Part shown: positions 1 to 22,215 of the stretch, one piece after another | How positions within the stretch are numbered: the stretch's first letter is position 1 | Layout: every line of letters starts with the position of its first letter | Source: Candidatus Woesebacteria bacterium | Lineage (GTDB): Bacteria; Patescibacteriota; Microgenomatia; UBA8517 | NCBI GenBank assembly: GCA_016700095.1 | Contig: CP065002.1 | Location: 432,463-496,462, forward strand | Length of the DNA stretch: 64,000 nucleotides | Direction of reading: 5' to 3' | Made by a program: the position numbers and the translations under genes | Notes under the pieces: model-generated | Told to the model about the DNA's origin: nothing | Seen by the model: only the letters and a program-made list of their open reading frames with translations | Databases searched by the model: none

Positions 1-451
1 AGATCTTTTAGCATATTGCTTAATGCCAAATCACTTTCATTTGTTGCTAAGACAAAAGGTTGACGGAGGTATCTCGAAGTATGTAGGTGACTTCCAAAAC
101 AGCTACACAAAATATTTTAATAAAAAACACAATAGACGAGGAGGTTTATTGTCGCAAAGATTTAGGGCTGTCTTAATTAAATCGCATGAGCAACTACTTC
201 ATCTGACGAGATATATACACCTAAACCCATACGCGTCAGGTGGTATTAAGGACTTTGATGAACTTTTTTGTTTTCCTTATTCCTCGATAAGAAGTTATCT
301 GGGAACAAAAGAAGACGAGTTGGTAAATAATAAGCTGATTTATGACCTGTTTGAGACGGGAGATGGATATTGTGAGTTTATGAAAGAGCGAGGTGATTAT
401 CAAAAAGAATTAAGTAAGATAAAAAAGTCATTGGATCTGCATGAAAAATAA
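1..451 (+). mobile_element. IS200/IS605-family (HUH, Y1) transposase TnpA / REP-associated tyrosine transposase (RAYT)-like, 5'-truncated by window edge
   Basis: The reading frame is open from the window start (…DLLAYCLMPNHFHLLLRQ…), giving the classic 'YxLMPNHvHLL' HUH motif. Size and REP-like palindromes downstream fit a RAYT. Confidence 0.6.
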
Positions 452-480
452 AATAAAGAAATGCTTATTCTTTTAATTCC

Positions 481-527
481 AACCCCGGGGGTTAGAATAG
501 CCTCAAAACAACCCCGGGGGTTGGAAA
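481..527. repeat. Two copies of the near-palindromic 13-mer AACCCCGGGGGTT, 21 nt apart (REP-like hairpins)
   Basis: Direct reading: aaccccgggggttagaa…aaccccgggggttggaa. Each copy is self-complementary and they lie immediately 3' of the RAYT-like ORF. Confidence 0.6.
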
Positions 528-542
528 AGAAGGTTGCCACTA

Positions 543-592
543 AAAAACCCGCTTGGTAATCTTTGTTGTGTTCAAAACTACAAGCGGGTTTA
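543..592 (-). terminator. Probable intrinsic terminator downstream of rplL (stem AAACCCGCTTG/CAAGCGGGTTT with flanking A/T runs; usable from both strands)
   Basis: An 8–11 bp GC-rich inverted repeat at 548-558/579-590, followed on the minus-strand transcript by a U-run. The loop is long (~20 nt), so this is moderate. Confidence 0.45.
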
Positions 593-615
593 AGTATTTG
601 TTAAAGATAAAGTGA

Positions 616-1035
616 TTACTTCATCTCAACTGTTGCACCGACTGCTCTTAATTTTTCAGCAGCTTCTTTAGCTGCATCCGGTTTAGCATCTTTTACGATT
701 TCTGCCGGAAGATTTTCAGTCATTGCTTTAGCGTCAGGAAGAGTAATGTTTTGGTTAATTTCCCTGATGGCTTTTATGGTCGGGACCTTGTCTTTCACCG
801 CTGTTAAAATTACGGTTCCACCTCCACCCGAACCTTCGCTTGCACCTGCTTCGGCACCTTGTTGGCTTGCAACGGGAGCCGCTGCTTGTGCAACCGGCAT
901 CGCCGATACGCCAAGTTTGTCTTGCAGAGCGTTTACTAGATCTGACAATTCCATTACGGAAAGTTTACTGATGTCCTCAACTAGTTTTTCGACGTTTTTG
1001 CTTAACGCTTTATCTTCTTTTTTCTCGTCTGTCAT
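616..1035 (-). CDS. rplL: 50S ribosomal protein L7/L12
   Basis: Ala/Glu-rich hinge and a C-terminal 'KAIREI…LPDAK…AEKLRAVGATVEMK' domain. ATG start and 4-nt overlap with rplJ. Confidence 0.95.
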   Translation of the reverse strand: MTDEKKEDKALSKNVEKLVEDISKLSVMELSDLVNALQDKLGVSAMPVAQAAAPVASQQGAEAGASEGSGGGGTVILTAVKDKVPTIKAIREINQNITLPDAKAMTENLPAEIVKDAKPDAAKEAAEKLRAVGATVEMK

Positions 1036-1559
1036 GAATTGTCACCACCTTTCGCCGCTTCACTTAATACATATACTAATTTCTGCATGGGGGCATTTAA
1101 TGTACCAACAATTCCATAAAGTGGTGCGGCGATAGCACCGAGAGCTTGGGCAAAAAGAGCATCTTTTCCAGGAAGCGTGCTCAGTTTCAACAATGTTTCA
1201 CTGTTTTGGAATACGTTTTCAACAATTCCAATTTTAAACTGAGGAAGTTCGTTGACCTTGGAAAATTTGCCTAGTACCTGCAAAGGTGCAATCGGGTCAC
1301 CCGTTGTAATAACCATAGCTGTCGGTCCCACTAGTGCTGTATCGGTTGTCTCTTTTGGTGCATCGGCTTTTTCGGCGGCTAATTTAAACAAAGTATTTTT
1401 GACAACTACCATCGTAGCATTTACTTTAGATAGTTCGGATTTTAAAGCTTGCTGAAGTTTGACGGTTAAACCCATATAGTCAACCAACACAACACAGCTG
1501 GCTGCTTTTATTTCTTTGGCGAGGTCGCTTACAAATTTTTCTTTGGATACTTTATTCAT
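1032..1559 (-). CDS. rplJ: 50S ribosomal protein L10
   Basis: L10 family sequence (MNKVSKEKF…VVLVDYMGLTV…) immediately upstream of rplL. Confidence 0.9.
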   Translation of the reverse strand: MNKVSKEKFVSDLAKEIKAASCVVLVDYMGLTVKLQQALKSELSKVNATMVVVKNTLFKLAAEKADAPKETTDTALVGPTAMVITTGDPIAPLQVLGKFSKVNELPQFKIGIVENVFQNSETLLKLSTLPGKDALFAQALGAIAAPLYGIVGTLNAPMQKLVYVLSEAAKGGDNS

Positions 1560-2172
1560 GTAAATTAAACAAAAAAAAGACGCTTCGAAGCGTCAATTTA
1601 ATCAAACAAAAATGATTATAAAATTCGCCTCGGTAGGACTTACAAATCGCCTACTGTCTTTGGACTTAAGGTATTATATGTAAATAGTTGCATTAGGTCA
1701 AGATAGACAGTTTAATAAACTCGAAAGTAAGTAGGGCATGTTTTCCGCACCTAATTTCCCCCGTACTATCAAAAACTTTGGGAGAATTCCGAAGGTGTAG
1801 ATTTCCCTAAGAAGTAAATCAGAGCTTAGAAAGATGTATGAGGAAAAATAGGCTGTGAGACGGGGATAAGTAGTCCTACACAGCTTAACTTTTCAACAAT
1901 TGAATTGCCGCTAAGCGAAATATCACTATTTCATTTGTGCCAATAAAAAATCGCGAGACATTGTTTATGTTTTATAAATAGATCTATATTATAAGGTCAT
2001 GTGAATAAGTGGAAGTAAGTATTTTGGGCGAATCGAAGCTATGTTTCTTATCTACATATTGTTTATTAATTATTTTTTTTATTAACCATTAAATGATTCG
2101 CTTACTATTAAAAAAGACATAGGGAAAATTTATAATTAGCTAAAACAATAGACATCCTTGGGGTGATACACA

Positions 2173-4185
2173 CTAATTACTATTGATCCTTTGCAATACA
2201 CGTCCGGCTGTTAGGGCGGCGAGATGATACAAAATAAAAGCGCTTGTAACATCACTTGCTCCTTCCGCAGTAATTTTCTGATTACTTAAAGCGTATGACA
2301 TCAACCAATCCGCATCGATTTCAACTAAAGTTGTGCCCTCGTCAACCTCAACTTTGGCGCTACGTACCGCTTGGGAATCGTACAACGCGTGTTCACCGAT
2401 TGTAAACCCTTTCTCTAAAATAATGTCGGTTGGAACTCCATCTACATTTTTCCCAACTCCTGTAATTTGCACCGCGCCCGTACGGACAAAATACAATTTT
2501 CCGTTTGCCGGTGAACCTTGGTGATAGAGGACTTGTTTTCTGTCAAACTGTCTTACGGTAAGTGGGGAATCAGGATCTGATTCGTGTTGATTAATGGCAT
2601 CATTAATAATTGCAGAAAACTTATTAGGATCGTAAAAATTTGACAGAGGGTTGTTGTCTACAATCTTGTCGTGTAGCTCAACGGGATTGGGAGAACTGGT
2701 ATATTTTGATATTTCACCAAGCGTTTGTACCATTGTGTAGGGGAGTTGTGTAAGAAGAATATGTAGTGCTTTTGCTTCTTTTGATTTAATTTTTCCTGAG
2801 AATAGTTCATTAGCCAAAGCGGGGTAGCTAAGAATATTTCTAATTGCCTCACCCCTAATCATCATAAATTCGGTTTCACTGGTTGTTGTGACGGTTGCGG
2901 TTGCATTTTTTTCCTCGCTCGACAAAGCCTGAAACGCACCGACAATTCTACCAGGTTCTATGTTTCTTGTTATTACTTGTTGATTCTGATATGTAGCGGA
3001 AACGTTAAGAGGAGGATTTTTGTTCCCATCCTTTTTATTAAAGGGGACAACGTAAAGATTGTCGTTATTTTCTCCAGCTGTTGTTAAGGTGGTATTTTCA
3101 TTTACCGTTTCGTAACTAACTCCGCTGTCAAGAGCAGATAAAGATTCAACCAACAAATAATTTGATAGCGCTCTGAAGGCGTCTTCATTTCCGTGTTTTT
3201 TGTCTGCGTTCAATAGTGCCGAATCGGTAAGTATACTTCCAACTACCCGTGAGCGAAATCCGGTAGATGTCGGACTTTTTGTTGTTCGCACTTTGCCTGC
3301 TTCCTCCAATAAACTTTTTTCTTCATCGGATAATGATTTATCGTTGTCAATAACAAGCTGGGCTAATTTTTCATCAGGACTAATACCTTGTTCAAGAGCA
3401 CTCCTGACTGCTGAGGCGTAATCATTTTTAAGTTTAGTTAAACTTCGTTTGTTGGTTTCGGCAATTAGTTTCCCAAGCTTTATTCGAACTAAATATTTTG
3501 CCAATTTTGCATCCGATAACGCGCGGAATTCATCTTCGCTACCTGCGTGAACATAATCGTGTACAAATTCAGCGATATAAAGATTAGCAAATCCGACACC
3601 ACCTTGTTGAGTGAGGTTAATATTACTAAGAGCTTCGTTACCAATTTCGCTTGGTTTAGTATGTCCTTCGTCGTCGAAATCCCGCATCGATGAGGCAAGA
3701 TAAACAGCCAGCCCCGTATAGTAATCGTTATTGTCACCAAGAATAATACTCGCCGTTTCGGGATCGTAACCTTTTTCGGCGATAAACTCGCCTGATTTTC
3801 TGGCCGTAACTGCTTCTTTGAATCCACCATGTACAAATTCATTTTTATCGGAAAAAAAGACTTCCGAATTAAGGCCATAACCACTTATTAATTCAAGCAC
3901 GCGGGTTCTTTCGTCGTCTGTCAGATCGGAATTGGTAAATATTCTTAAATCGTGATCATTTCCACCTTTTTCGATAGGAGTTCCAACTTCGTTTATAGTG
4001 TGATATTTATCTCCCATAATTTCTTTGAGCTTTGGTTTTACCTCTTTGCAAAACGTGTGTCTTTTCGTGATACGATCTTGTTGAGAGTCTTTTAGTAATA
4101 ATACCGCCATTGTGTCCGTTTTTTTAGCTGGAGGTTGTTCGGGGTTTTGGACAGTGGGTATAGTACTATGTGTATCTTCGGTCAT
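2173..4185 (-). CDS. Large cytoplasmic protein with ~380-aa N-terminal region of unknown function and two tandem C-terminal cyclic-nucleotide-binding (CNB/cNMP) domains
   Basis: Two CAP/PKA-R-like segments: '…IVGAFQALSSEEKNATATVTTTSETEFMMIRGEAIRNIL' and '…FTIGEHALYDSQAVRSAKVEVDEGTTLVEIDADWL'. Both carry the GExAL…R(S/A)A(T/K)V signature. ATG start. Confidence 0.65.
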   Translation of the reverse strand: MTEDTHSTIPTVQNPEQPPAKKTDTMAVLLLKDSQQDRITKRHTFCKEVKPKLKEIMGDKYHTINEVGTPIEKGGNDHDLRIFTNSDLTDDERTRVLELISGYGLNSEVFFSDKNEFVHGGFKEAVTARKSGEFIAEKGYDPETASIILGDNNDYYTGLAVYLASSMRDFDDEGHTKPSEIGNEALSNINLTQQGGVGFANLYIAEFVHDYVHAGSEDEFRALSDAKLAKYLVRIKLGKLIAETNKRSLTKLKNDYASAVRSALEQGISPDEKLAQLVIDNDKSLSDEEKSLLEEAGKVRTTKSPTSTGFRSRVVGSILTDSALLNADKKHGNEDAFRALSNYLLVESLSALDSGVSYETVNENTTLTTAGENNDNLYVVPFNKKDGNKNPPLNVSATYQNQQVITRNIEPGRIVGAFQALSSEEKNATATVTTTSETEFMMIRGEAIRNILSYPALANELFSGKIKSKEAKALHILLTQLPYTMVQTLGEISKYTSSPNPVELHDKIVDNNPLSNFYDPNKFSAIINDAINQHESDPDSPLTVRQFDRKQVLYHQGSPANGKLYFVRTGAVQITGVGKNVDGVPTDIILEKGFTIGEHALYDSQAVRSAKVEVDEGTTLVEIDADWLMSYALSNQKITAEGASDVTSAFILYHLAALTAGRVLQRINSN

Positions 4186-4473
4186 GTTTTGATTATAAAG
4201 GTACCCGGGTGTAATTACAGATTCAAAATATGTAACTTTTAGGTAGTTAGCTAATAACCTTAACTAATTTATTCAAAGAGGTGTGATATGGTGTTTACTA
4301 AAATTACGTACTTAATACTGCGGTTTAGTTAAAACAAAGAACATACTTTTTAAATTAATAAAAACTCATGAGATGAATTAATGATCGAACAATTATCCGG
4401 TAACAAGAACTTAATGATATTCGATTAACCCTTTCCAAATATATGTTTTGTTTTAGAAGTAGTAGAATTAGGT

Positions 4474-5625
4474 ATGTCGGAAGATGAAATTGAGCAAGTT
4501 CATACTAAAGCCGAGGAAAAACTGGGGACTCCGGATGGGCAAGTGTTAATTAAAGAAATTCGCCGGGATGTTTTCGATGAGTATGATCGGGCGTTTCTCG
4601 AGGGAACTATAAGTAGTAGGGAAGAGCTTGAGTTAAACAAAAAACACGTTGATTTGGTGGTTGTGTTAGCCAAAAAGTCTATTCAGGTACTTCGTGATAA
4701 CCGTATTGACGTGACACAGGCTCAGGAAGATTTAATTGTCATTGAAGCGCTTTTACATGATGCGATGAAATTGGTACCCGAAAGACAAGAGTTGCCAGAT
4801 GATGATAATCGTGAGCATTCAGGTAAATCGTCCAGAGTCGCAAGACTTCTTATGCACGGAGAAGACAGTGCATTGTGGAGCGAGCAGTTACTAAAAGACA
4901 GGGGTTTTGAGACGGCTACGATAAAAAAAGTAAAAAGCGATATTCGTGCACACATGGGTATGCCATATGTAGAAAGTGTGTTAAATAGTACCAAGCAAGA
5001 CACGCACGAAAGAAACACTTTCCCGAGGTATTTACGCAGATCAAAAGATAAGTCCGAATATCCTGAACCCAATAGTCTGGAAGGAATAGTACTTAGAACG
5101 AGCGACTTTCTCACGGCAGGCATTTTAGCAGGTGCGGATATTGATCGTGATCCTGCCGCCGGAAGTCTGGATAAGTATTTGGCTATCAATTATGCTATTT
5201 TGGTCGCAAGAAATGAGCCGGTTACCTTCGAAAAGATTTTTAATATGTCACAAGATAGCATTTCGCGTAATGCTAAAAAACTGTCAGAAAGTATTCAAAG
5301 AAGACGAGATGGGAAATTGAAAGAAGTGGAAGGTGTTTTGTATATAGAGATGGTTTTTGGCTTAACGCAAAAAATTGCCCACTTTTCATCGGCTATCGGA
5401 AACGGTGAATTGGTAAATAGGGAAGGTGAAAAAACGGGTGATGCAAGTGCTTTGGCGGGAAGTAATGACAGGGCAAATGGATGGAACGATTTAAACGTAT
5501 TAAAGTCTGATGGAGAAACATTAGATTTTGAGGCTAGTATGGACAAGTATTATCAAGCGGTCAAAGTATTCCGTGAACAAAGAGAAATAGGTGGTTATCC
5601 TGCAAGTGATGTCTTGAATTGGTAA
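4474..5625 (+). CDS. HD-domain metal-dependent phosphohydrolase family protein
   Basis: H…HD motif (KKHVDLVVV…EALLHDAMK) with downstream conserved H/D residues. The C-terminal half is unrecognised. Confidence 0.55.
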   Translation: MSEDEIEQVHTKAEEKLGTPDGQVLIKEIRRDVFDEYDRAFLEGTISSREELELNKKHVDLVVVLAKKSIQVLRDNRIDVTQAQEDLIVIEALLHDAMKLVPERQELPDDDNREHSGKSSRVARLLMHGEDSALWSEQLLKDRGFETATIKKVKSDIRAHMGMPYVESVLNSTKQDTHERNTFPRYLRRSKDKSEYPEPNSLEGIVLRTSDFLTAGILAGADIDRDPAAGSLDKYLAINYAILVARNEPVTFEKIFNMSQDSISRNAKKLSESIQRRRDGKLKEVEGVLYIEMVFGLTQKIAHFSSAIGNGELVNREGEKTGDASALAGSNDRANGWNDLNVLKSDGETLDFEASMDKYYQAVKVFREQREIGGYPASDVLNW

Positions 5626-5760
5626 ATAGTTTACTAAAACCAATTTTAATAACGGTGAGCAGGTCGCATTACCGATAGCTTTTTTCTGCGATTTCTTGGA
5701 AACATTGCAAAGAACTGACAAGAAAAAACTAATGTTAAAATAACAATACGAGGTGAAAAG

Positions 5761-6579
5761 TTATTTATTGACGTCGACTTTTACGCTGGGACCGATTGAG
5801 GCACAAATATAGGTTTTTGCAAATAAACTTTTACCGATAGCCTTAATGATGCTTTGCGCATTTGCTTCCAATTCTTTGTCGTCTTGGCTAACTTTGCCGA
5901 TTGTTGTATGTATTAGAGGTGCTTTCTTTTCGGTTTTTACTGTAATTGCACTAGCTGAAAACTTTTTTGCATCGTCTTTGGTTTTGATAACTGTTCCATT
6001 TTTGGGATTTGGCATTAATCCTCTGGGACCAAGAATTTTTGCAAAAGGTACAAGTTTGGGCATCATATCACCTGTGGCAAGGAGTACGTCAAAATCTACT
6101 TTTCCCGCTTTCAATTTCACCAAAGTATTGTCATCGGCAACTTCGATGACTTTCGTTTTCCCGGCGCTAAAAGGTAATTTTACTTGTGCGCTAACGTTTT
6201 CTTTTTTCAAAACAGCATGCATTTCAAGTGTTGCATCGAACTTGGCATAAGAAGATTCTTTGGCAATTCTTAGGGCTTCCGTAAGGGAGTAAAGCTTGGT
6301 TTTGTCGACTTTTGCCAACGACGTTTTGTATTTATTACCTCGTACTCTTAGACCTCTTTTGGCTTTGGGGGATTTACCTGCTGTGCTTTGAGTTTCGATA
6401 GTTTCGGTTGCATCTCCTCCAACGACTTTTACGCGTTCGCCGCCTTTTAGACCAACACCCTTAACGGCGCTTTTTTCGGTTTCGATCTTTTTTAGTTGTT
6501 TGAGTTTGTATTTTTCAGCTCCCGATATCACTTTCTTGTTGCCAAGATCGGCTACGAGCGCTGTTTTTGTTTTTCCCAT
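5761..6579 (-). CDS. rplA: 50S ribosomal protein L1 (with ~75-aa Lys-rich N-terminal extension or mis-set start)
   Basis: L1 core '…KYKTSLAKVDKTKLYSLTEALRIAKE…GPRGLMPNPKNGTV…'. The longest ORF starts at an ATG well upstream of the usual L1 N-terminus. Confidence 0.9.
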   Translation of the reverse strand: MGKTKTALVADLGNKKVISGAEKYKLKQLKKIETEKSAVKGVGLKGGERVKVVGGDATETIETQSTAGKSPKAKRGLRVRGNKYKTSLAKVDKTKLYSLTEALRIAKESSYAKFDATLEMHAVLKKENVSAQVKLPFSAGKTKVIEVADDNTLVKLKAGKVDFDVLLATGDMMPKLVPFAKILGPRGLMPNPKNGTVIKTKDDAKKFSASAITVKTEKKAPLIHTTIGKVSQDDKELEANAQSIIKAIGKSLFAKTYICASIGPSVKVDVNK

Positions 6580-6582
6580 AAA

Positions 6583-7008
6583 TTAATTTTTAATTTTTAC
6601 TCCCATTGATCGTGCAGTTCCTGCTACGATTTTTTTTGCGGATTCAAGATTGTCGGTATTTAAATCATCCATTTTTTCTTTGGCGATTTTTTCAACCTGC
6701 TCATTTGTCAATTCACCGACAATTTTACGATTTGGCTCTCCAGATCCACTTTGTAAATTAAGTTCCTTTTTTATAAATTCCGACATTGGAGCCTTTTTGA
6801 GTTCGAAAGTAAACGACCGATCTTCAAAGATGGTAATTACGGCTGGAACCATCTGGCCTTTCATCTCCGCGGTTTTGTCGTTGTAAGATTTAACAAAATC
6901 CATAATGGCAATACCATGTTGACCCAAAGCGGTTCCAACAGGAGGTGCAGGTGTTGCCATGCCACCTTGTAAATTGATTTTTACGACCGTTAATATTTTC
7001 TTTGCCAT
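6583..7008 (-). CDS. rplK: 50S ribosomal protein L11
   Basis: The sequence 'MAKKI…VKINLQGGMATPAPPVGTALGQHGI…' is canonical L11. Confidence 0.95.
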   Translation of the reverse strand: MAKKILTVVKINLQGGMATPAPPVGTALGQHGIAIMDFVKSYNDKTAEMKGQMVPAVITIFEDRSFTFELKKAPMSEFIKKELNLQSGSGEPNRKIVGELTNEQVEKIAKEKMDDLNTDNLESAKKIVAGTARSMGVKIKN

Positions 7009-7288
7009 ATATGTAACGAATACACGAAGACTTTACTTGAAGTTTTCGATTATTCATCTACCTCAAACAGTTAAAATACTGCTGAAGTACACATATTGTA
7101 GCTAGTGGGTTAGTGAATTGCAAGAGTTGGTTGGATTAAATAGAAGTTAGAAGTTTAATATATTTCAGCATAAAATATTGTTAGTAATTTCCCGTAAGTT
7201 ATATTGGGGTAAACAAAGACTGCAAAGTGGTGTGTTTACCATTTCGCCAAAAAGAATCTATTCTGGGTGATAATTTGATAACGTGTTG

Positions 7289-8041
7289 TTAAACTTTGGC
7301 TACCTGAAGTAAATCGAGCTCAACGGGAGTTTCGCGACCAAAGATAGAAACGAGGACGTTAACTTTACCTTTTTCTTCATCAATACTTTGAATTGTTCCC
7401 AAGAAATCGGAAAAAGGACCATCAGTTATTTTTACTGCCTCACCGTTAACGAATTTAGTTTTGAATCTTTTTGCCGGAGTTGATACGAACTTTTGGATAT
7501 TTGCCACTTCATTTTCGGAAAGTGGTGTCGGTTGGTTACCTGCACCAACAAAGCCGGTAATTCCTGGAGTTGTCCTTATCGCAAGCCAAGTAGCGTCATC
7601 AAGAATAATTTTAACAAGCATATATCCGGGAAATATTTTTTCTTTAATTGTTGCTTTTTTACCACCTCTAATTACAACTCTGTCTTGAGTGGGGACTAGT
7701 ATTTCAAAAACACTATCTTCTAGTCGCATTGTTTCAACTCTTTGTCTTAGTGTTTCTGCAACTCTGGCTTCATGTCCGCTGGTTGTATGGACGACAAACC
7801 ACTTGGCGTTCTCGTTGTCTGTTTTATTTATAATAACATGGCCTTTAATTTTTGCTTTGCCGGTACCGCGTTCGTCGACAGCACTTTGGTCATGTGCGCC
7901 TGAGTCATTGTCATTATCATCCAATATATCCGTGCCAATTTTGCCTGAAGTGTCAGCGGTTTGTGTAACGGAAACTTCTTCCTCAACCTTGGTTATGGTA
8001 TCGGAAGATTCTTTGCTTAATGGGTTTTTGTTATCAGACAT
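7289..8041 (-). CDS. nusG: Transcription termination/antitermination factor NusG with ~95-aa acidic N-terminal extension
   Basis: NGN domain 'KWFVVHTTSGHEARV…' and KOW domain '…FVNGEAVKITDGPFSDFLGTI…', in the secE-nusG-rplK context. Confidence 0.9.
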   Translation of the reverse strand: MSDNKNPLSKESSDTITKVEEEVSVTQTADTSGKIGTDILDDNDNDSGAHDQSAVDERGTGKAKIKGHVIINKTDNENAKWFVVHTTSGHEARVAETLRQRVETMRLEDSVFEILVPTQDRVVIRGGKKATIKEKIFPGYMLVKIILDDATWLAIRTTPGITGFVGAGNQPTPLSENEVANIQKFVSTPAKRFKTKFVNGEAVKITDGPFSDFLGTIQSIDEEKGKVNVLVSIFGRETPVELDLLQVAKV

Positions 8042-8049
8042 GTAAATAT

Positions 8050-8235
8050 TTAAATCGAAAGTAACGTTTCAATTAATTTTGTAAAAGCGTAATCAAGACC
8101 TCCTACATATAATCCTACTATAACCGATATCAAAACAACTACTGTGGTAAGTCTAATAACCTCGCTTCTACTTGGCCATATAACTTTTGAAAGCTCAAAT
8201 CTAACACCTTTCAAATAATGAGCCAAATTATTCAT
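8050..8235 (-). CDS. secE: Preprotein translocase subunit SecE
   Basis: A small protein with a single C-terminal TM and the 'ELSKVIWPSRSEV' motif. I set the start at the internal ATG (MNNLAHYL…) rather than the ORF-track start at 8274. Confidence 0.8.
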   Translation of the reverse strand: MNNLAHYLKGVRFELSKVIWPSRSEVIRLTTVVVLISVIVGLYVGGLDYAFTKLIETLLSI

Positions 8236-8484
8236 AACATTGGAAATTGTACCAGAGATAGAGAAAAGATACAATATTTTCTAATAATAAATGAAATTTT
8301 GCAAATACTTATTCATACCGATAGTAAAGCTGTAGACGATGTTGGTGGATGTATCAAATATATATGGTTGGCAATTGTCACGGGCAAATAGTTCTTATAT
8401 CCAATTTCTGATATATTATTAAGAGTGAGCGAAGATATTACAGGAGATAAAACCCAAGGAATAGAAAATTTTTGAATAGGTGGT

Positions 8485-9430: not shown

Positions 9431-10078
9431 ATGGCAGATTTTACGTATGAAAATAAATTATGGACGAAAGGAGTCAAGTTGATTGGCGGTGTAGATGAGG
9501 TGGGGAGGGGAAGTTTTGCAGGACCCGTTGTTGCAGCATGTATCGGGTTTGATTCGGGAGTTAGGCTAAATGACGCAATTAGAATAAATGATAGCAAACA
9601 ACTTACCCAAAAGAATAGAGAAATGGCGTATCGATGGATTATAGATAAATGCCTAGTTATTGGAGTCGGTATCGTCAATTTAGAAGAAATTGACGAAAAC
9701 GGTATCGGTAAAGCAAGTATCGAAGCAATGCGTCGCGCGGTAAATTCTGCGTTAATATTACCAAATAAATATGCAGATATTTCACTTGAACACTTATTAA
9801 TTGACGCGTTCAATATTCCTCAACTTGTAAATTTCCCCAAAGAGAAACAAACTGCAATTATCAAGGGGGACACATTGTCGTTTTCAGTCGCTGCAGCAAG
9901 TATTATTGCGAAAGTATATCGGGACAAGATTATGAATGATTTATCGACTTTCAAAAAATATGAAAAATATGCATGGCACAAAAACAAAGGTTATGGTACC
10001 AAAGAACATATCGATGCTATCCGAAAACATGGCTTAACCAAACACCACAGAAAACTATTTGTGAGAAATTATATATAA
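9431..10078 (+). CDS. rnhB: Ribonuclease HII
   Basis: The 'GVDEVGRGSFAGPVV' catalytic motif, RNase HII length and conserved C-terminal K/H residues. Confidence 0.9.
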   Translation: MADFTYENKLWTKGVKLIGGVDEVGRGSFAGPVVAACIGFDSGVRLNDAIRINDSKQLTQKNREMAYRWIIDKCLVIGVGIVNLEEIDENGIGKASIEAMRRAVNSALILPNKYADISLEHLLIDAFNIPQLVNFPKEKQTAIIKGDTLSFSVAAASIIAKVYRDKIMNDLSTFKKYEKYAWHKNKGYGTKEHIDAIRKHGLTKHHRKLFVRNYI

Positions 10079-10174
10079 AAAAGCAATCGACTTATCTTTT
10101 AAATGTATATTTCATACATAAAAACATCAAAAGACAAAAACGAGTATTTGCAGAATTAATGAATTTTGATCGTA

Positions 10175-10369
10175 TTAATACTTTCTTTTCTTTTCCAATT
10201 CGATCAAATGTTTTATGCGGGCTTTTTTCTCTTTTCTTTTTTCCGCTTTTGTTATGTAATGCGATCTATCACGCGCTTCCTGAAGTAGACCAGAGTTCAA
10301 AACTTCCTTTTTGAAACGATTGATTAGTTTGTCGTCTGATTCTCCTTGTTGTTTTACGACTTTCACCAT
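10175..10369 (-). CDS. rpsU: 30S ribosomal protein S21
   Basis: A 64-aa basic protein, 'MVKVVKQQGESDDKLINRFKK…', typical of S21. Confidence 0.85.
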   Translation of the reverse strand: MVKVVKQQGESDDKLINRFKKEVLNSGLLQEARDRSHYITKAEKRKEKKARIKHLIELEKKRKY

Positions 10370-10481
10370 GGATTATCGCCTCCCTTCGTAATATGTATTT
10401 TATTAATTGTGTCATATACGATCACCTAAGCTATTGTATAACGAAAACACCAACTTTTCCATAAAAAGATAATTGCACACC

Positions 10482-12758
10482 TTAGTTAATTTTATGTTTT
10501 TGTGGCATCTTTTGTCTTAGTCTTAGCTGTTGTGCATTTCTCGTGTTGACGGGGGAAGATTCTCCGGTGTTATTGTCAACTCTAGTTACTTGCAATTTTG
10601 GGTTATTAATAAGTAAAGTTGTGATGAGTGCATTGACATCATTGCCCTCTATTACCCATATATCGAGAATGTATTTGCCTCCATTAAATTGGTTGGATTG
10701 AGGTGAGTTGTCAGGTGAAACAATCGGAACAAAGCTAATTCCGCATTTATCTGCACTTTCTCCAATTATTTTCATAACTCCCGCTTTTTCTTCGGTAACT
10801 ATGCGGAAGTGCGGGCATTCAAGTGTCCGATCAATTACATCGTCTACAAATCGGTCTGCCATAGCCAGCTGGGGGTTAAATCCATATAAATCATGCCATT
10901 CTTCCATGTAATGATCACTTTCGGTATTAATTGGCACATGAATCCCAACTTGATGCGCAATATCAGCAAACCCAGCATCCATTTTTTGGAATATTAATAT
11001 TGGTTCCTTTGGTAGATTGGGATTATCGCTTACTTTTCCTGAATAGGTTTTTTCAATCATTCGCGTTCCGCGAATAATTGCCCTAGTGCGAATTTCAGGA
11101 CCATATATCGCATCATCTGTTAGTTGTTCCAAACGCCTAGTTATATTGTTTATTGCTTTACCAGTTGTAACCATGTCAAGTCTATCTGGAAAAACGATAT
11201 TACGGCCCTTAGAACCTTCTGCGACTTCAAACCATACTTTGTCTCCTGGTTTAAGCGAGGTGTTTAACGGTAAACCTTCGTATTTATTGTTGCCTTGTAT
11301 TATAGTTACCTTCGTTGCATCATTTCCTAAGTTTCTTCCTATTGCATATGCGGCATCCAAAGCAGTAGCTCCGGATGCTACTGTCAATATTTCACCCGTA
11401 GGTGTTTCAATGTTGATAGTTCCTCTTCCCAAACCTTCGGTAAGTAACTCGATGTGCGGATCTCCGTTTTTTTGTAATTGATCGGTGTATCTTGCGATAT
11501 CTGCTAGCTTTTTCAGTGCACCTGTGGCTAAATCTGGATTGTTGGTATGTATACCTCTGAAATTATCTAAAGGATTTACTAGATCCTCCTGGTGAAAGAC
11601 ATGAACACGTAAGCGATGTGTTTTTCCCTCGTGAGAAAAAGGAAGACTTGGAGTTTCACCTTTGTGGGGTTTGAAACTTTCTTGCTCACCTAAATAATGT
11701 TTCCATTGGAGGACAGATGTTGTAGTATCACAAATTATATAAACTTCTGGAAGCATGTTTTCTTCTGTGGGGTTGTGATTGGCTAAGTAAACTTCTAGGG
11801 GAGTTTGTGTTTCAATTGCAATTGCCGAATACGGAATCCTCATATTGTCAACCCTCGCTGTACTAACCAATCGGTCAAGCTCATCATTTATTGATCCGAT
11901 TAAAGCATTGTCAACTATGTGTTGCATAGCCGTTAATCTCGCGTATTCCTGCGGGTTGAGCGACCTAAACGACGCGTTACCTATCAAATCGGCAGCATTA
12001 AATGCGCCCAGTCTTATGGCTAATTTGTAATACAATTCTACTGCGAGAGTCGCTTTTTCTATACTCTTATTTCTTGGTAAATGTTCGTAGGTGAGTGCGT
12101 TGTGAACAACATCTCCAACTGTTTTTATAATTACTGCGACTTGTTGCTCGGAGTTTAATGAGCCAAGAAGTTTAAATACGGTTTGTGTTTCTTCTTCGTT
12201 CCAATATGATATCTGAGTTTGTCGCGGTTTACCTTTTACATCTTCTTTTTTCCTGATTTTCGTTAGCGCGTCAACAATATTGCTAACATTTTTATTTGTT
12301 GCCTCCGTAATTTCGTCAAGAGAGGTATCCGTATCTTCGTAAATATCGTGTAGTACGGTTGCGCAAATTGCATCTTCGTCAGTGATGCCAAGTCGAAGTA
12401 AGTAATAAACCATCCACCAGTGGTGAGTTTGGGTTTCGTCATCACTTTTTCGTTTCTCTTTTCCTGCTTTTATTAATTTATCCTGTGCGAAGTCACCCGC
12501 CTGATTTAACTTATCAATTAGCTCGTCAGGATTGTCCACCTGCATACGAATATAAACGAAAGCTTTTTGTTTTATTTCTTCGGTAGTTATGCCAGTTGGC
12601 GGCAAAAGCGCTTCTTCGGGATAATCAAACGGACCCAAGTTTTCAAGATTAGATGAACTGCCCATTCTCGCAGCTTCGTTTAACAGCCGTCTCACATCAA
12701 TTTCGGTTGGTGATAGTTTTTTTTTGGCGCTGGGGGGAGCCGTTGATTCTGCCGTCAT
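10482..12758 (-). CDS. RelA/SpoT-family (p)ppGpp synthetase/hydrolase homolog (HD hydrolase domain, divergent synthetase region, TGS domain, C-terminal ACT-like region)
   Basis: HD region 'VLHDIYEDTDTSLDEI'. Synthetase-like segment 'DLIGNASFRSLNPQEYARL…RIPYSAIAI'. TGS 'IETPTGEILTVASGATALDAAYAIGRNLGNDATKVTIIQGNNK…LKPGDKV'. Confidence 0.75.
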   Translation of the reverse strand: MTAESTAPPSAKKKLSPTEIDVRRLLNEAARMGSSSNLENLGPFDYPEEALLPPTGITTEEIKQKAFVYIRMQVDNPDELIDKLNQAGDFAQDKLIKAGKEKRKSDDETQTHHWWMVYYLLRLGITDEDAICATVLHDIYEDTDTSLDEITEATNKNVSNIVDALTKIRKKEDVKGKPRQTQISYWNEEETQTVFKLLGSLNSEQQVAVIIKTVGDVVHNALTYEHLPRNKSIEKATLAVELYYKLAIRLGAFNAADLIGNASFRSLNPQEYARLTAMQHIVDNALIGSINDELDRLVSTARVDNMRIPYSAIAIETQTPLEVYLANHNPTEENMLPEVYIICDTTTSVLQWKHYLGEQESFKPHKGETPSLPFSHEGKTHRLRVHVFHQEDLVNPLDNFRGIHTNNPDLATGALKKLADIARYTDQLQKNGDPHIELLTEGLGRGTINIETPTGEILTVASGATALDAAYAIGRNLGNDATKVTIIQGNNKYEGLPLNTSLKPGDKVWFEVAEGSKGRNIVFPDRLDMVTTGKAINNITRRLEQLTDDAIYGPEIRTRAIIRGTRMIEKTYSGKVSDNPNLPKEPILIFQKMDAGFADIAHQVGIHVPINTESDHYMEEWHDLYGFNPQLAMADRFVDDVIDRTLECPHFRIVTEEKAGVMKIIGESADKCGISFVPIVSPDNSPQSNQFNGGKYILDIWVIEGNDVNALITTLLINNPKLQVTRVDNNTGESSPVNTRNAQQLRLRQKMPQKHKIN

Positions 12759-12820
12759 TACACTTTATCGGAGGGAATTGGAGAATTATAAATGATTATC
12801 AGAATTTGTGGTAGTAGTGT

Positions 12821-13678
12821 TTAATAATATTCGATTACCAACTGTGGTCTGTTGACTGAACCTTTTTGTTCAGAGGATATGAAATATACAAAATCTCCCG
12901 ATTTGTTTTCACCTAACGTTTCTTTCCCAAAATGAATTCTGAATTGACTTTGACCCCTGCCATTTGCAAAATCATCTCGCACGGCGTTAGTTACATCTGC
13001 TTCTTTCCAGCCGATATTTTTACTGGTTGAAATAGTAGCAAAATTGCTGACAAAAGCCGGCAGGGAATAGTCCTGGGCATCCAGACTATCTCCGTAGTTA
13101 AGGTGGTCCAATCTTAAATCACCAATTGTTGCGTAGGGATTTTCAGTAGTTTTAATTTGATAAAGCCTTAAAGAAGCCGCTTTAACAGTAACGCCTGTCG
13201 GAATAACTGTTAGATCAAAACTGACAAAACCGCGGGTAACACTCACACTATCTCGACCTATACGAATTTCTTTGTCGGAATAACCAATACCGTCGCTTGC
13301 CATGTAGCCGTCAAGATCTGCTTGTCCTAATACGATTTTGGTAACGGTCGGTTTTTCCGGAGCTTGGGTTAAGGGTATTTCCGTCCTGGTCGGTTTTGGT
13401 TGGGGCGTTAACCCTTGGGTTACCACTTCCACGGCGTCAGATTTTTCATCTTCTGTAATCCGTGCGTTTTTTCCTATTTGGGGTGCAGTTAACCTTCCGT
13501 AAGTGAATGACGCATAGGAGATGAGAATGATTACGATGATAATCGGGGTAATGATCAATATTTTGGAAAATTTGTTTTTCAATGTAACTTTGGTAGCCAT
13601 GGGCTTTGTTGTGGTTTCTAAATTCTGCGAAGAACTTTCTTTTTGAATATCCTGCGGTATATTGGATATATTGTCCAT
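12821..13678 (-). CDS. Hypothetical N-terminally membrane-anchored extracytoplasmic protein
   Basis: One TM segment near the N-terminus (ILIITPIIIVIILISY) followed by a ~220-aa soluble region. No recognised domain. Confidence 0.5.
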   Translation of the reverse strand: MDNISNIPQDIQKESSSQNLETTTKPMATKVTLKNKFSKILIITPIIIVIILISYASFTYGRLTAPQIGKNARITEDEKSDAVEVVTQGLTPQPKPTRTEIPLTQAPEKPTVTKIVLGQADLDGYMASDGIGYSDKEIRIGRDSVSVTRGFVSFDLTVIPTGVTVKAASLRLYQIKTTENPYATIGDLRLDHLNYGDSLDAQDYSLPAFVSNFATISTSKNIGWKEADVTNAVRDDFANGRGQSQFRIHFGKETLGENKSGDFVYFISSEQKGSVNRPQLVIEYY

Positions 13679-13814
13679 TGTCTAATGATAATATTATTCG
13701 AATTACCTTTGCAAATTCTTCCTGTCTAAAGCAGGGAAAAATTAACCAGTGAAATACTTACTTTTATTAACGATCTACACTACTTTCTAAACGATACACA
13801 GAAAACAAGAACAG

Positions 13815-14207
13815 TTAATAGGGGCGAAAATTAATATATAAAATTATTGAGAGTAGTAGTACGGATGTAAAAACAAGCAGAAGAACATAGCCATAAAGCG
13901 AATAAGCATATTTTTTATATTTCCAAAGACCGATCGCAAAGACAGTGAGAAATCCTGTTGATATAACCAGCAGGGCATGATACAGCTTTCTGGTTACATT
14001 TCCCATCGGAAAAGCAATATAGAAATCGTAATTAGCATCCGCTGTTGGTGTGAAGAATTGATACCATCTGTGGAGCAATAAAACTAAGGTTAGAATAAAA
14101 GTATAGACGGTAATTTTTTTTCTAACTTTTGGTTTAGCCGAATGCCATATCAAAGTAAAAGTTCCGATTAAGATCGCGGCAAAGGAAGAGGCAAAAAGTC
14201 TAAACAT
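13815..14207 (-). CDS. Hypothetical integral membrane protein (4 predicted TM helices)
   Basis: Hydrophobic segment pattern only. Confidence 0.45.
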   Translation of the reverse strand: MFRLFASSFAAILIGTFTLIWHSAKPKVRKKITVYTFILTLVLLLHRWYQFFTPTADANYDFYIAFPMGNVTRKLYHALLVISTGFLTVFAIGLWKYKKYAYSLYGYVLLLVFTSVLLLSIILYINFRPY

Positions 14208-14211
14208 CTAT

Positions 14212-14799
14212 TTATAATAGCACTTTGTTTTGGGCAATTGCAGTAAGCAATGTATCTATTTGAGTAAATAAATATTTTTTTCCTTTCGAATTTATCAATG
14301 TATAATCCGCCATCGCAATCGGTCCACCTTTCTCCAAATTTTCGATTTCAGCGATATCACGCTTGGCTGCTTCTTCTTTTGTAAAACTTCTGAATCGTGA
14401 TTGAGGATCGTTAATTGCTTTTCTCTCACTTATTCTTGTATATCTAACTTGCGGTGGTGCCCATACGGCTACAACGATGACCGTGTCCTTAAAATACTTC
14501 TTAATTATCTTATATTCAGTGAAACTATAAAGTCCGTCGGCTACGACATTGTTTTCCTTTAACATATTGTCGATCACGGGAATAATGCGCTTTGCCAAAA
14601 CACCCTTCCCGTGTTTTTCCCGTAAACCTTCCCTGATTTCTCTTTCAACCTTTTCCGACGGTATGAGATTGCGTTTCTTGACTTCATCAAGGACTACTTG
14701 ACCGAAACGGACAAATTTAAATCCCTTTCCCACTAAATAATCGGAGACGGTACTTTTGCCGCTTCCAGGCATGCCGGCAACACAAATAACTTTATGCAT
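14212..14799 (-). CDS. P-loop nucleotide/nucleoside kinase-like protein (adenylate-kinase/dephospho-CoA-kinase fold)
   Basis: Walker A 'VICVAGMPGSGKSTVSDYL' at the extreme N-terminus and a ~195-aa size. Confidence 0.5.
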   Translation of the reverse strand: MHKVICVAGMPGSGKSTVSDYLVGKGFKFVRFGQVVLDEVKKRNLIPSEKVEREIREGLREKHGKGVLAKRIIPVIDNMLKENNVVADGLYSFTEYKIIKKYFKDTVIVVAVWAPPQVRYTRISERKAINDPQSRFRSFTKEEAAKRDIAEIENLEKGGPIAMADYTLINSKGKKYLFTQIDTLLTAIAQNKVLL

Positions 14800-16226: not shown

Positions 16227-16691
16227 ATGTTGAAAGTAAAGCCATTTAAACAAGAAACAGGTTATTGTGGTCCGGCGTCTCTTAAGATTGTATTGGATTA
16301 CTATGGTATTGAAGTAACAGAAAAAGAATTAGTTGATTCTACCGATTGTTCGGTGCAGATGGGTGTCGAAGCCGGAAGACTTCTTGAGGCAGCGTTGGAA
16401 TACGGTTTGGAAGGGTATATTAAAGATTTTGCCGATTTAACCGATATTAAAAATCAAGTTGTTGACAAACTCAGACCGGTTATTGTAGATTGGTTTTCCG
16501 AGGATGATGGTCATTATAGTGTTGTGGTAGATATCGACGATGAAAATATTTATTTACTCGATCCGGAAATGGGACACGTCAGAGCAATGCGACATACGAA
16601 ATTCTACCGCGTTTGGTTTGACTTTCCGGGTGATTACATTAAAGCAAAAGACGATCTTACAATCAGAAGGATGATAGTTGTATATAAATAA
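16227..16691 (+). CDS. Peptidase C39-like (papain-fold cysteine peptidase) domain protein, standalone
   Basis: N-terminal 'ETGYCGPASLKIVLDYYG' matches the C39 catalytic-Cys motif (xCGxAxLxMxxxYYG). Downstream His/Asp candidates are 'GHYSVVVDID' and 'GHV'. Confidence 0.6.
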   Translation: MLKVKPFKQETGYCGPASLKIVLDYYGIEVTEKELVDSTDCSVQMGVEAGRLLEAALEYGLEGYIKDFADLTDIKNQVVDKLRPVIVDWFSEDDGHYSVVVDIDDENIYLLDPEMGHVRAMRHTKFYRVWFDFPGDYIKAKDDLTIRRMIVVYK

Positions 16692-21057: not shown

Positions 21058-21140
21058 GGCAAGTGGTTAGTGTTATAAAGATGTCGCACATATCAAATAA
21101 TTACATATGAAAACTTGATGAAAGTAGTTGTGAGTGTATT
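20943..21140. repeat. Copy 2 of the duplicated promoter + 5'-CDS module
   Basis: See copy 1. Confidence 0.85.
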
Positions 21141-21170
21141 TAAGATGTAGAATTTCCGGTCACACACTTT

Positions 21171-22130: not shown

Positions 22131-22215
22131 GGTTATATTTTACTCTGCGCACGGCAACAAAGTTAGTATAATTTAAAAATACACAGTGCGTTATAATACA
22201 AAGGTTATATTCTTT

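Follow-up and report, generated by a model that had tools for sequence, protein, structure and literature searches.

The window that we analyzed is a stretch of 64,000 nucleotides of Candidatus Woesebacteria DNA in which two genes are lodged between rplA and rplJ, at the rplKA-rplJL junction, which is usually invariant. On the reverse strand, the upstream flank runs from a SecE-like open reading frame (ORF; 8050 to 8274) through nusG (7289 to 8041) and rplK (L11; 6583 to 7008), an ORF whose orthologs in the compared loci carry PF03946/PF00298, to rplA (L1; 5761 to 6579), identified by PF00687 (E value, 9.8e-22). The downstream flank, on the same strand, consists of rplJ (L10; 1032 to 1559), identified by PF00466 (E value, 7.9e-22), and rplL (L7/L12; 616 to 1035), an ORF whose orthologs at loci L001, L006, and L012 carry PF00542/PF16320. 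A Y1-transposase-like ORF at 23 to 451 lies beyond rplL, outside the insert. The gap itself measures about 4.2 kb between the stop of rplA and the start of rplJ (the first-pass annotation had put it at about 4.1 kb) and holds only a reverse-strand gene for a 670-aa protein (2173 to 4185) and a forward-strand gene for a 383-aa protein (HD383; 4474 to 5625) that is convergent with rplA, both ORFs being exactly as that annotation gave them. The two genes are divergent rather than operonic and are separated by a 288-bp AT-rich spacer (4186 to 4473; GC, 0.32) that presumably carries the promoters of both; a consensus promoter search of this spacer gave no strong site. Identical proteins for both genes are present in NCBI from a 1.27-Mb Candidatus Woesebacteria contig, the longer one (100% identity) as a "cyclic nucleotide-binding domain-containing protein" of Candidatus Woesebacteria bacterium, and since both also have diverged homologs (54 to 58% and 32 to 35% identity, respectively), we conclude that the two ORFs are real genes.

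Ahead of rplJ on the reverse strand we identified a ribosomal protein L10 leader, the autoregulatory RNA of rplJL (1563 to 1681; Rfam RF00557, 47.7 bits against a gathering score of 44), with a terminator-like hairpin inside it (1594 to 1579), and a promoter-like site, TTGACC-17-TATAAT (1701 to 1673), which is a consensus match only (11/12 matches) and the best such site within positions 400 to 8400. Because rplJL has its own promoter-like site and leader, the insert lies between two transcription units and not inside one, which refines the earlier description of two genes lodged in a housekeeping operon. Nor is an insertion into this syntenic block as unusual as it first seems, since unrelated cargo routinely fills the gap in this lineage. 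Gap sizes in 75 loci extend from 10 bp to more than 11 kb, with about 40% of 70 unselected species exceeding 1 kb, and the 129 ORFs found there fall into 108 families, with lanthipeptide genes, P450, cohesin, and dockerin genes, membrane proteins, and HD enzymes among the cargo. The rplA-rplJ gap is therefore a variable-cargo hotspot in Woesebacteria, and the position would represent a site at which this lineage in particular tolerates accessory genes, with no sign of a ribosomal function. A genomic island or mobile element was also considered for the insert and rejected: there is no integrase, no significant flanking repeat, no compositional shift, and no tRNA within 35 kb, and the GC (0.40 to 0.41) and GC3 (0.33 to 0.35) of the insert genes equal those of the flanking housekeeping genes.

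The C-terminal part of the 670-aa protein contains tandem cyclic-nucleotide-binding (CNB) domains, as the first reading of the locus had it. PF00027 (cNMP_binding) matches in two stretches (E value, 4.7e-17; 62.2 bits against a cutoff of 27.5), the best of which covers residues 545 to 627; NCBIfam matches to CNB regions cover residues 360 to 462 and 543 to 638, and matches to CRP/CAP in the PDB span residues 545 to 666. CNB2 (residues ~530 to 650; 2236 to 2598, reverse strand) has a canonical phosphate-binding cassette, G597-E598-x9-R608-S609-A610, at nucleotides 2356 to 2397, with CAP-like spacing (E72...R82) and invariant in three orthologs. CNB1 (residues ~345 to 470; 2776 to 3153, reverse strand), recognized by Pfam, NCBIfam, and alignments, has a degenerate cassette, GAFQALSSEEKNATATV, in which Ala417 and Asn427 replace the conserved Glu and Arg throughout the clade, whereas distant homologs keep GE...PRSATV at this position; the cassette is thus conserved in CNB2, while that of CNB1 is intact in the distant relatives but not in the clade. 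In the clade, CNB2 is thus the only one of the two domains to retain the Glu and Arg by which cyclic phosphate and ribose are held, and we infer that the protein is gated by a cyclic nucleotide (cNMP).

The N-terminal domain had been described as unrecognized and possibly an uncharacterized effector or enzyme, and at the level of sequence this stands. Residues 1 to 340 had no match in Pfam or NCBIfam scans of the 670-aa protein, the 15 family members gave no Pfam match to the domain at E values of ≤10 (PF01909, PF03445, PF08335, and PF10335 included) and no NCBIfam match, and a 15-sequence profile found no sequence match in the PDB; by sequence profile, the domain belongs to no catalogued nucleotidyltransferase (NTase) family. 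Its predicted structure, in contrast, is recognizable. In an AF2 model, residues 35 to 113 form α1 (35 to 60), β1 (61 to 67), a G68-T69 loop, β2 with D77xD79, a helix (90 to 101), and β3 (109 to 113, with E108), about 200 aa of helices follow, and this modeled arrangement conforms to the Pol-β NTase core fold (α-β-α-β-α-β). The AlphaFold and Foldseek check that the first-pass annotation had proposed ranked NTases first, with HalB, ANT(4'), AAD(9), AadA, and MNT at the top (probability, 0.9 to 0.98). Residues ~35 to 340 (3166 to 4083, reverse strand) are accordingly predicted to form a Pol-β-type NTase core (α-β-β-α-β) and a helical KNTase_C/HEPN-like domain, as in GlnE, ANT, and DrrA. The DxD motif, D77-H78-D79 (3949 to 3957, reverse strand), lies at the start of predicted strand β2 with G68-T69 before it, and among the 15 members, which share only about 20% identity, both aspartates (D77 and D79) are invariant and followed by hydrophobic residues, G68-T69 is nearly invariant, and the consensus reads FGTPGGxDxDLR. 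Speaking against an NTase, besides the lack of sequence-level matches, are the third acidic position (E108), which varies among E, D, and H, and the distance between G[ST] and DxD, which is 4 to 7 residues instead of the usual 9 to 13 (hG[GS]x9-13Dh[DE]h). The protein would most reasonably act as an NTase, and a ligand-sensing CNB pair fused to an effector remains a reasonable description of it, the effector being an uncatalogued, enzyme-like domain for which an NTase-like fold is predicted.

An exhaustive search of 1.84 billion representatives with a profile built from only the N-terminal domain recovered just 15 clusters, and PF00027 was present in 10 of 10 scanned clusters having this domain; the family is thus a small orphan one whose NTase-CNB-CNB architecture is fixed. 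The 670-aa gene itself belongs to one small clade, in which it lies between rplA and rplJ at all three loci (orthologs P0002, with 58% identity, and P0003, with 54%), and it was not found in 80 other Woesebacteria/Microgenomates species. Its conservation among orthologs (54 to 58%) is like that of L1 (54 to 66%), and the gene looks to have been inherited vertically within the clade. The first-pass annotation had held that universal carriage of the two genes by related genomes at this position, with housekeeping-like conservation, would make this an ordinary lineage-specific regulator, and the answer is mixed; the fixed position and L1-like conservation apply within the clade, yet the gene is absent from the 80 other species, and the comparison of gap contents that it had proposed shows a clade-limited gene in a gap with variable cargo across the lineage. 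Distant family members at five loci have housekeeping genes as neighbors, with no HD neighbor and no ribosomal genes nearby, and two members (P0010 and P0014) carry long extensions with H...HD motifs, which are unverified.

HD383 is a metal-dependent phosphohydrolase of the HD superfamily, which bears out the earlier assignment of the neighbor to the HD-fold enzymes. Its HD motif is H95-D96 (nucleotides 4756 to 4761, forward strand), and H58, H95-D96, H128, H160, and D211 are invariant in four homologs at 32 to 35% identity, giving the H...HD...D metal-binding pattern, and the fold is likewise that of the HD superfamily; its match to PF01966 is below threshold (18.7 bits against a gathering score of 22; E value, 0.0022), and its homologs have no precomputed Pfam match. 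An HD-motif gene adjoins the 670-aa gene at all three loci, but it is HD383 in the window and a member of a different family (HD-B) at L001 (286 aa) and L005 (211 aa). HD-B is classed as HD by motif only and has no profile similarity beyond shuffles to HD383 or to the P0010/P0014 extensions.

HD-motif genes occur in about 1% of gaps among 80 species loci (only L018), yet they sit directly next to the CNB gene in three of three cases and come from two families, with L005 having the same gene order and orientation as the window, a like-for-like swap of one HD gene for another. This adjacency is what suggests a partnership, in which the HD enzyme would be a possible antagonist, and we regard a functional link between HD383 and the NTase protein as less likely than not. 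It also weighs, together with the unverified H...HD motifs of P0010 and P0014, against the idea that the two are unrelated accessory genes sharing a hotspot, the 670-aa protein being a stand-alone cNMP-regulated enzyme or regulator and HD383 an independent nucleotide/phosphoester hydrolase that is ancestral or mobile gap cargo. That idea, which we consider somewhat unlikely, is consistent with the divergent orientation of the genes, with the five distant NTase-CNB loci that have no HD neighbor, and with the occurrence of both HD families apart from the 670-aa gene: homologs of HD383 are found in different gene strings of the same gap, after LanB/LanC at L006 and within a P450...cupredoxin string at L012, and HD-B is found at L018 without a CNB gene.

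We propose that the 670-aa protein is a cNMP-gated nucleotidyltransferase, probably of the AMPylase type, with the HD enzyme as a possible antagonist and the locus as a permissive site, a model that we hold to be about evenly balanced between right and wrong. Sensor and enzyme would be combined in one polypeptide, with a Pol-β NTase core bearing a DxD metal site and a helical substrate-binding domain in the N-terminal half and a CNB pair resembling that of PKA-R in the C-terminal part. Binding of cAMP or cGMP at CNB2 would reorient the CNB pair, a conserved linker, and the C-terminal helix, and this movement would switch nucleotidyl transfer on or off, the transfer most likely being AMPylation of a hydroxyl on a protein or small molecule. 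If the two genes are linked, HD383 may hydrolyze the cyclic nucleotide or else, like the HD domain of GlnD, remove the nucleotidyl group.

The 670-aa protein would be the NTase counterpart of Pat/KATmt (Rv0998 and MSMEG_5458), the mycobacterial cAMP-activated protein acetyltransferase, which likewise joins in one polypeptide a CNB domain and a group-transfer enzyme (GNAT) that modifies other molecules; the best NCBIfam match for CNB1 is NF058543, the Pat CNB region (E value, 8.7e-7). In Pat, ligand binding relieves or imposes autoinhibition, and we propose the same logic here. Homology is confined to the CNB domain, however. The one CNB domain of Pat is N-terminal and its output is a GNAT, whereas in the 670-aa protein the NTase output comes first and the tandem CNB domains come after it. 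The adenylyl- and uridylyltransferases GlnE, GlnD, and DrrA share the plan of a Pol-β NTase and a KNTase_C-clan helical domain, supplemented in GlnD by an HD "removing" domain, but there is no detectable sequence similarity, the glycine-to-DxD spacing of the 670-aa protein is shorter, their regulation is by PII, glutamine, or ACT rather than the CNB domains proposed here, and the HD domain of GlnD is in the same protein while HD383 is encoded by a separate divergent gene, a candidate partner by adjacency. ANT(3'')(9), AAD(9), AadA, ANT(4'), LinB, MNT antitoxins, and HalB of Hailong are stand-alone, sensor-free enzymes of about 250 aa, with 10 to 14% identity. DUF294 proteins, which are functionally uncharacterized, have the architecture cNMP_binding-CBS-CBS-NTase (PF03445)-DUF294_C (PF10335). 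These proteins also join a CNB domain to a Pol-β NTase and a KNTase_C-type helical domain (DUF294_C is an NTase C-terminal domain [PMC3710099]), but their domain order is opposite, they have CBS pairs and a single CNB, and the 15 family members match neither PF03445 nor PF10335 even at E values of ≤10.

The NTase could instead make the signal. As in HalB, CD-NTases, and RelA-type synthetases, it would produce a nucleotide messenger (a linear or cyclic oligonucleotide, or an alarmone-like compound), the CNB pair would provide feed-forward or feedback control, and HD383 would degrade the product, in a split RelA/SpoT-like logic; we judge this unlikely. A bolder extension of our own model, which we consider improbable, is that the NTase-CNB-CNB protein and its HD neighbor form a reversible switch, with a cNMP-gated AMPylase as the writer and the HD enzyme as the eraser of the mark or signal, maybe kept at L11/L1-L10/L7/L12 in this CPR clade because the target is part of the translation apparatus. 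If true, the switch, which would be new to the literature, would constitute the first cNMP-to-nucleotidylylation pathway and offer a rare view of second-messenger signaling in Patescibacteria.

The first-pass annotation likened the genes to second-messenger-gated effector modules such as Pycsar. In an anti-phage system of this or a similar kind, a phage-activated cyclase would produce a cNMP, its binding to the CNB pair would release the toxicity of the N-terminal effector, and HD383 would be a nuclease or signal degrader. Pycsar effectors (PycTIR and PycTM) likewise fuse a CNB sensor to an effector, defense and toxin-antitoxin enzymes such as HalB (Hailong) and MNT belong to the NTase fold class, cargo at the locus is variable, and the 670-aa protein has weak matches to PycTIR (4.2e-7), TIR effectors, and PycC in PADLOC and to PycTIR in the PDB (E value, 0.23). 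The PADLOC matches, however, are limited to the generic CNB2 region at E values of ≥4e-7, with that to PycC (0.0013) on the CNB domain. There is no cyclase in the gap at any of the three loci (by Pfam preannotation for L001 and L005), and thus no adjacent PycC; the sole cyclase-type candidate in the 64 kb is a CYTH-domain protein (30764 to 31363), 26 kb from the insert, which may be a triphosphatase. The 670-aa protein has no TIR match and no transmembrane segment (maximum Kyte-Doolittle 19-residue score, 1.39), no homologs were found on phages, plasmids, or IMG/VR contigs, and the lack of mobile marks, the flank-like composition, the seemingly vertical inheritance with L1-like conservation, and the housekeeping neighbors of distant members point the same way. 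With no cyclase, TIR/TM effector, mobile mark, or defense context, the Pycsar-like reading is unsupported, and we consider it very improbable.

Least probable is an NTase that AMPylates the ribosomal stalk, L1/L11, or a translation factor, or that inactivates a ribosome-targeting compound in the manner of ANT/Lnu, which would explain the position of all three orthologs between rplA and rplJ and accord with a fold closest to aminoglycoside/lincosamide NTases and GlnE and with lanthipeptide clusters in the same gap elsewhere, but which is opposed by the more than 100 unrelated ORF families in the gap, the location of distant members away from ribosomal genes, the identity of about 10% to ANTs with no sequence-level match, and the self-contained regulation of rplJL.

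Separately, the rplKA-rplJL junction of Woesebacteria is a high-turnover cargo site, useful for comparative genomics of the CPR and for the mining of accessory functions, being readily recognized in fragmented MAGs. Binding domains for cNMP gate transcription factors, kinases, channels, the acetyltransferase Pat, EAL phosphodiesterases, and Pycsar effectors, and to our knowledge no dedicated cNMP-gated nucleotidyltransferase has been characterized. Under our proposed model, the NTase-CNB-CNB family would extend the outputs of cyclic-nucleotide signaling to nucleotidylylation and would offer a tractable, single-protein way into signaling in the CPR, whose regulatory biology is almost unknown.

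Two genes occupy the 4.2 kb that separate rplA and rplJ in the window, and ORF calls reproduce exactly the coordinates and gene sizes proposed in the first-pass annotation. On the minus strand, a SecE-like ORF (8050-8274), nusG (7289-8041), rplK (6583-7008), and rplA (5761-6579) are followed by the gene for a 383-aa protein, HD383, which lies on the plus strand (4474-5625) convergent with rplA, and then by a 288-bp AT-rich spacer and the divergent 670-aa ORF (4185-2173, minus strand). About 470 bp of noncoding DNA lie downstream of the latter, and minus-strand signals and genes continue with a strong promoter-like site (1701-1673; 11/12 matches), an L10 leader (1681-1563; 47.7 bits against an Rfam gathering score of 44), rplJ (1559-1032), and rplL (1035-616). 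NCBI holds both inserted proteins at 100% identity on a 1.27-Mb Candidatus Woesebacteria (CPR/Patescibacteria) contig, where the 670-aa protein is named "cyclic nucleotide-binding domain-containing protein" and HD383 "hypothetical protein IPM62_02070." The surrounding genes have peculiarities of their own: L1 (272 aa) carries a lineage-specific N-terminal extension with a conserved MGKTKTA start, its Pfam match beginning near residue 142, and NusG (250 aa) carries a lineage-specific, acidic, Ser-rich leader of ∼75 aa, both extensions being common to related loci. No rpoBC follows rplL in the window, in L001 (a locus with a 670-aa orthologue), or in L006 (a locus with an HD383 relative). Directly after rplL is a Y1/IS200-like transposase fragment (23-451, plus strand; HUH motif HFHLL; PF01797, 1.6e-5), adjoined by a palindrome pair, TTCCAACCCCGGGGGTT / AACCCCGGGGGTTGGAA, at 474-529.

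Residues 1 to 345 of the 670-aa protein have no match in Pfam, NCBIfam, or PADLOC, the N-terminal domains of 15 family members have none in Pfam even at E ≤ 10, and PDB, searched with profiles of 3 and of 15 sequences, returned nothing for this region. The earlier suggestion of an uncharacterized effector or enzyme is therefore upheld insofar as none of these four resources catalogues the domain, which by model is nucleotidyltransferase (NTase)-like. An AF2 model of the N-terminal half, built from three orthologues (pLDDT 72.6; pTM 0.74), has disordered residues 1 to 31, then alpha(35-60)-beta(61-67)-loop-beta(79-84)-alpha(90-101)-beta(109-113), two further short strands, and ∼170 helical residues. 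Its best structure matches were ANT(3'')(9) (7.7) and AAD(9) (7.4), followed by HEPN-type helical domains (∼6 to 7), minimal nucleotidyltransferases, DrrA, LinB, and ANT(6)/ANT(4'), all scores that fall in the grey zone; Foldseek independently placed HalB (Hailong), ANT(4'), AAD(9), AadA, and MNT at the top, with probabilities of 0.9 to 0.98 and weak E-values (≥0.01). The segment G68-T69...D77-H-D79-L-R-I-F occupies the place expected for the NTase G[GS]...DxD motif. Among 15 relatives at ∼20% identity, D77 and D79 never vary and G68 hardly does. Besides the grey-zone scores there are two further caveats: only 4 to 7 residues separate G from DxD across the family, which is short, and the third acidic residue varies among E, D, and H. 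The N-terminal half is quite probably a Pol-beta-type NTase. Its predicted plan, an NTase followed by a helical domain, is that of GlnD, GlnE, DUF294, and the aminoglycoside NTases, in which the second domain is KNTase_C/HEPN-like (PMC3710099).

The sole Pfam match of the 670-aa protein is cNMP_binding (4.7e-17, two stretches), and a PDB profile search aligned CRP/CAP structures to residues 545 to 666. The phosphate-binding cassette of the second cyclic-nucleotide-binding domain, CNB2, is canonical (G597-E598-x9-R608-S609-A610, with CAP spacing) and invariant across the three orthologues. In CNB1 (∼345-470), both key residues are replaced in the clade of the window (Ala417 and Asn427); distant relatives have a canonical CNB1 (GE...PRSATV), and in several of them CNB2 is weakened instead. 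Conservation throughout the family extends to the linker between the two domains (ALHILLTQL...TSSPNP...NPL..FYD) and to the C-terminal helix (LYHLAA..GRV).

Searching 1.84 billion representatives with a profile restricted to the N-terminal domain recovered 15 clusters carrying the domain, 9 of them at E ≤ 1e-10. All ten clusters scanned carry C-terminal cNMP_binding domains, so in this family the catalytic-like domain is obligately coupled to its sensor pair, and this pairing is the strongest argument that the CNBs regulate the N-terminal domain. Named members are labeled "CRP-like cAMP-binding protein" by their sources, and hosts range from low-GC CPR (protein P0014, Candidatus Microgenomates) to high-GC bacteria (locus L094, 70% GC). 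L094 encodes tandem paralogues of 749 and 736 aa (10001-12250 and 12310-14520, plus strand), each with an extra N-terminal helical extension of ∼130 aa. Two family members, P0010 (N-terminal residues 1 to 400) and P0014 (C-terminal residues ∼680 to 1197; L093 4503-8093, the gene running beyond its contig end), have long extra regions with H...HD motifs, including "AMAHDS" and "HNWHH...x36...LFHDIGW," the latter with class I PDE-like spacing; judged from such motifs, they are possible HD or PDE ("Rosetta-stone") fusions. The literature covered, which is incomplete, gives no account of such an NTase-CNB fusion and no report of cNMP signaling in Woesebacteria.

HD383 is an HD phosphohydrolase. 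Its match to PF01966 is below threshold (18.7 versus 22 bits), and its AF2 model (pLDDT 61.8; core 75 to 90) strongly matches the HD hydrolases YpgQ (11.9), SidE PDE (11.0), and YedJ (10.4), with the GppA C-domain, cNMP PDEs, HD-GYP proteins, and small alarmone hydrolases at ∼9 to 10; no substitution of H58, H95-D96, H128(GED), H160, or D211 occurs among four homologues. An HD-motif gene adjoins the 670-aa gene in all three loci compared (the window, L001, and L005), compared with ∼1/80 gaps in an unselected survey. The L001 and L005 neighbors (286 aa and 211 aa, the latter possibly frameshifted) belong to a small family other than that of HD383, here HD-B, with the motifs [FY]HNxxH, HDxGN, YH, GAEDRS, and MDxxG. 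Gene order and orientation in L005 are identical to those in the window, so that one HD-motif gene looks to have been swapped for another in place. The L005 gene, beside a 658-aa orthologue, is seemingly split (3397-4222, minus strand): the 286-aa query aligned by tblastn in two HSPs, 4138-3608 and 3624-3397, that differ in frame, reflecting either a frameshift/pseudogene or an assembly error. HD383 relatives (L006, L012) and HD-B (L018) also occur without the 670-aa gene, and an HD neighbor is missing from five distant NTase-CNB loci. We consider a functional link between the 670-aa protein and its HD neighbor possible, if somewhat doubtful. The HD383 family, HD-B, and the P0010/P0014 extensions could not be linked to one another by hhalign (probabilities ≤1%), HD-B and the extensions found nothing in Pfam, NCBIfam, or PDB, and an HD-B profile in hmmsearch scored no better than 2000 shuffles; no statistic supports HD-B or the extensions as HD domains, and in a MAFFT alignment DE[YF]D and HD were the only motifs to line up. 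The HD-B [FY]HNxxH...HD motif resembles that of class I PDEs (5vyd, E 4 to 34), a lead rather than a result, because the profile, PDB, and shuffle comparisons failed.

Among 5.8 billion sequences, only two further clusters of the 670-aa protein were found (58% and 54% identity), and both sit between rplA and rplJ (L001 to L004, and L005). The HD383 homologues (32 to 35%) are likewise all in this gap, amid other cargo: a LanC/LanB lanthipeptide cluster with MazE in L006 to L011 (L006 1005-12663) and a P450-cupredoxin-cohesin-dockerin string in L012 (3535-10841). JGI metagenome scans recovered no further 670-aa orthologues and, for the HD383 family, only known loci plus one 1.2-kb fragment. In a survey of 80 species-representative Woesebacteria/Microgenomates loci found via L1, neither gene was present, and the gap ranged from 10 bp to 8.8 kb (>11 kb in L006), exceeding 1 kb in ∼40% of 70 measurable unselected loci and 2 kb in 16. 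Gap ORFs of 80 aa or longer number 129 and sort into 108 families, 95 of them singletons. The commonest family, a 450- to 490-aa protein with a signal peptide and multiple TM segments that adjoins rplA, was observed in at least nine loci (L001 13063-14418, minus; L006 11288-12667, plus; L018 10917-12389, minus; also L013, L026, L038, L042, L055, and L062); it combines a ∼300-aa extracytoplasmic domain with a multi-TM region at the C terminus, matches nothing in Pfam, and may be an ancestral gap resident that is missing from the window. In an NJ tree of L11+L1+L10, without bootstrap, the window, L005, and L001 form an exclusive clade, and identity among the 670-aa orthologues (54 to 58%) resembles that of L1 (54 to 66%). 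Both inserted genes equal their neighbors in GC and GC3, and no flanking repeats, integrase, or tRNA surround the insert. As to whether this is an island or a lineage feature, the 670-aa gene is fixed in position in one small clade (3/3 loci) and absent from 80 other loci, with no mobile-element signs around the insert. The picture is of a clade-specific 670-aa gene, long resident at a site that is permissive throughout the lineage and flanked by two operons, each self-contained, and its location by ribosomal operons is explained by this lineage-specific hotspot, not by function.

As to the proposal that the pair is a Pycsar-type defense effector module, weak PADLOC matches to PycTIR (4.2e-7), TIR effectors, and PycC (1.3e-3) are all confined to CNB2, the gap is cyclase-free in all three loci with a 670-aa gene, the protein has neither TIR nor TM segment, searches of phages, plasmids, and IMG/VR contigs yielded no relatives, and no other defense genes were found around the insert, which leaves that reading unsupported and very improbable. 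The observation made in the first-pass annotation thus stands along with part of its interpretation, and the defense part is not supported. The nearest conceivable cyclase, and the one candidate within the 64-kb window, is a 199-aa CYTH-domain protein (30764-31363, plus strand; PF01928, 7.9e-8) that starts with an EXEXK motif (EWEAK) and matches no PDB entry by sequence; a class IV adenylate cyclase, which would make it a cAMP source, and a triphosphate-tunnel phosphatase/triphosphatase are equally conceivable identities. Elsewhere in the window, a 758-aa RelA/SpoT-homologue-like protein (10482-12758, minus strand) has HD_4 (4.8e-15) and TGS (5.5e-7) domains and no synthetase-domain Pfam match at E ≤ 1e-3, so that it may act only as a hydrolase or its synthetase may be divergent; a cluster of nucleotide-metabolism genes nearby encodes Ppx-GppA (26584-27546), NUDIX (17974-18438), and Ham1 (29315-29926) proteins. 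The window also has a possible set for processing and exporting a peptide or bacteriocin, made up of a C39 peptidase domain protein that stands alone (16227-16691, plus), an exporter of the ABC type (ABC_membrane + ABC_tran; 22186-23988, plus), and a tandem pair of trypsin-like peptidase paralogues (20059-22130, minus).

Beyond the observed domains, family architecture, conserved motifs, and genomic distribution, we infer a scheme of catalysis, ligand, direction of regulation, acceptor, and HD partnership in which the 670-aa protein would be a cNMP-gated Pol-beta nucleotidyltransferase. The DxD site would hold Mg-NTP and the helical domain would bind the acceptor, by analogy with GlnE, ANT, and DrrA. 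Binding of cNMP at the single intact CNB site would shift the tandem CNB module, the conserved linker, and the C-helix, opening or closing the active site, a gating modeled on PKA-R and cAMP-activated Pat. The HD neighbor may clear cNMP or strip the nucleotidyl group as the HD domain of GlnD does. The 670-aa protein is thus predicted to couple CNB gating to an enzymatic output of the NTase superfamily, through a catalytic domain that represents a rare family absent from current catalogues.
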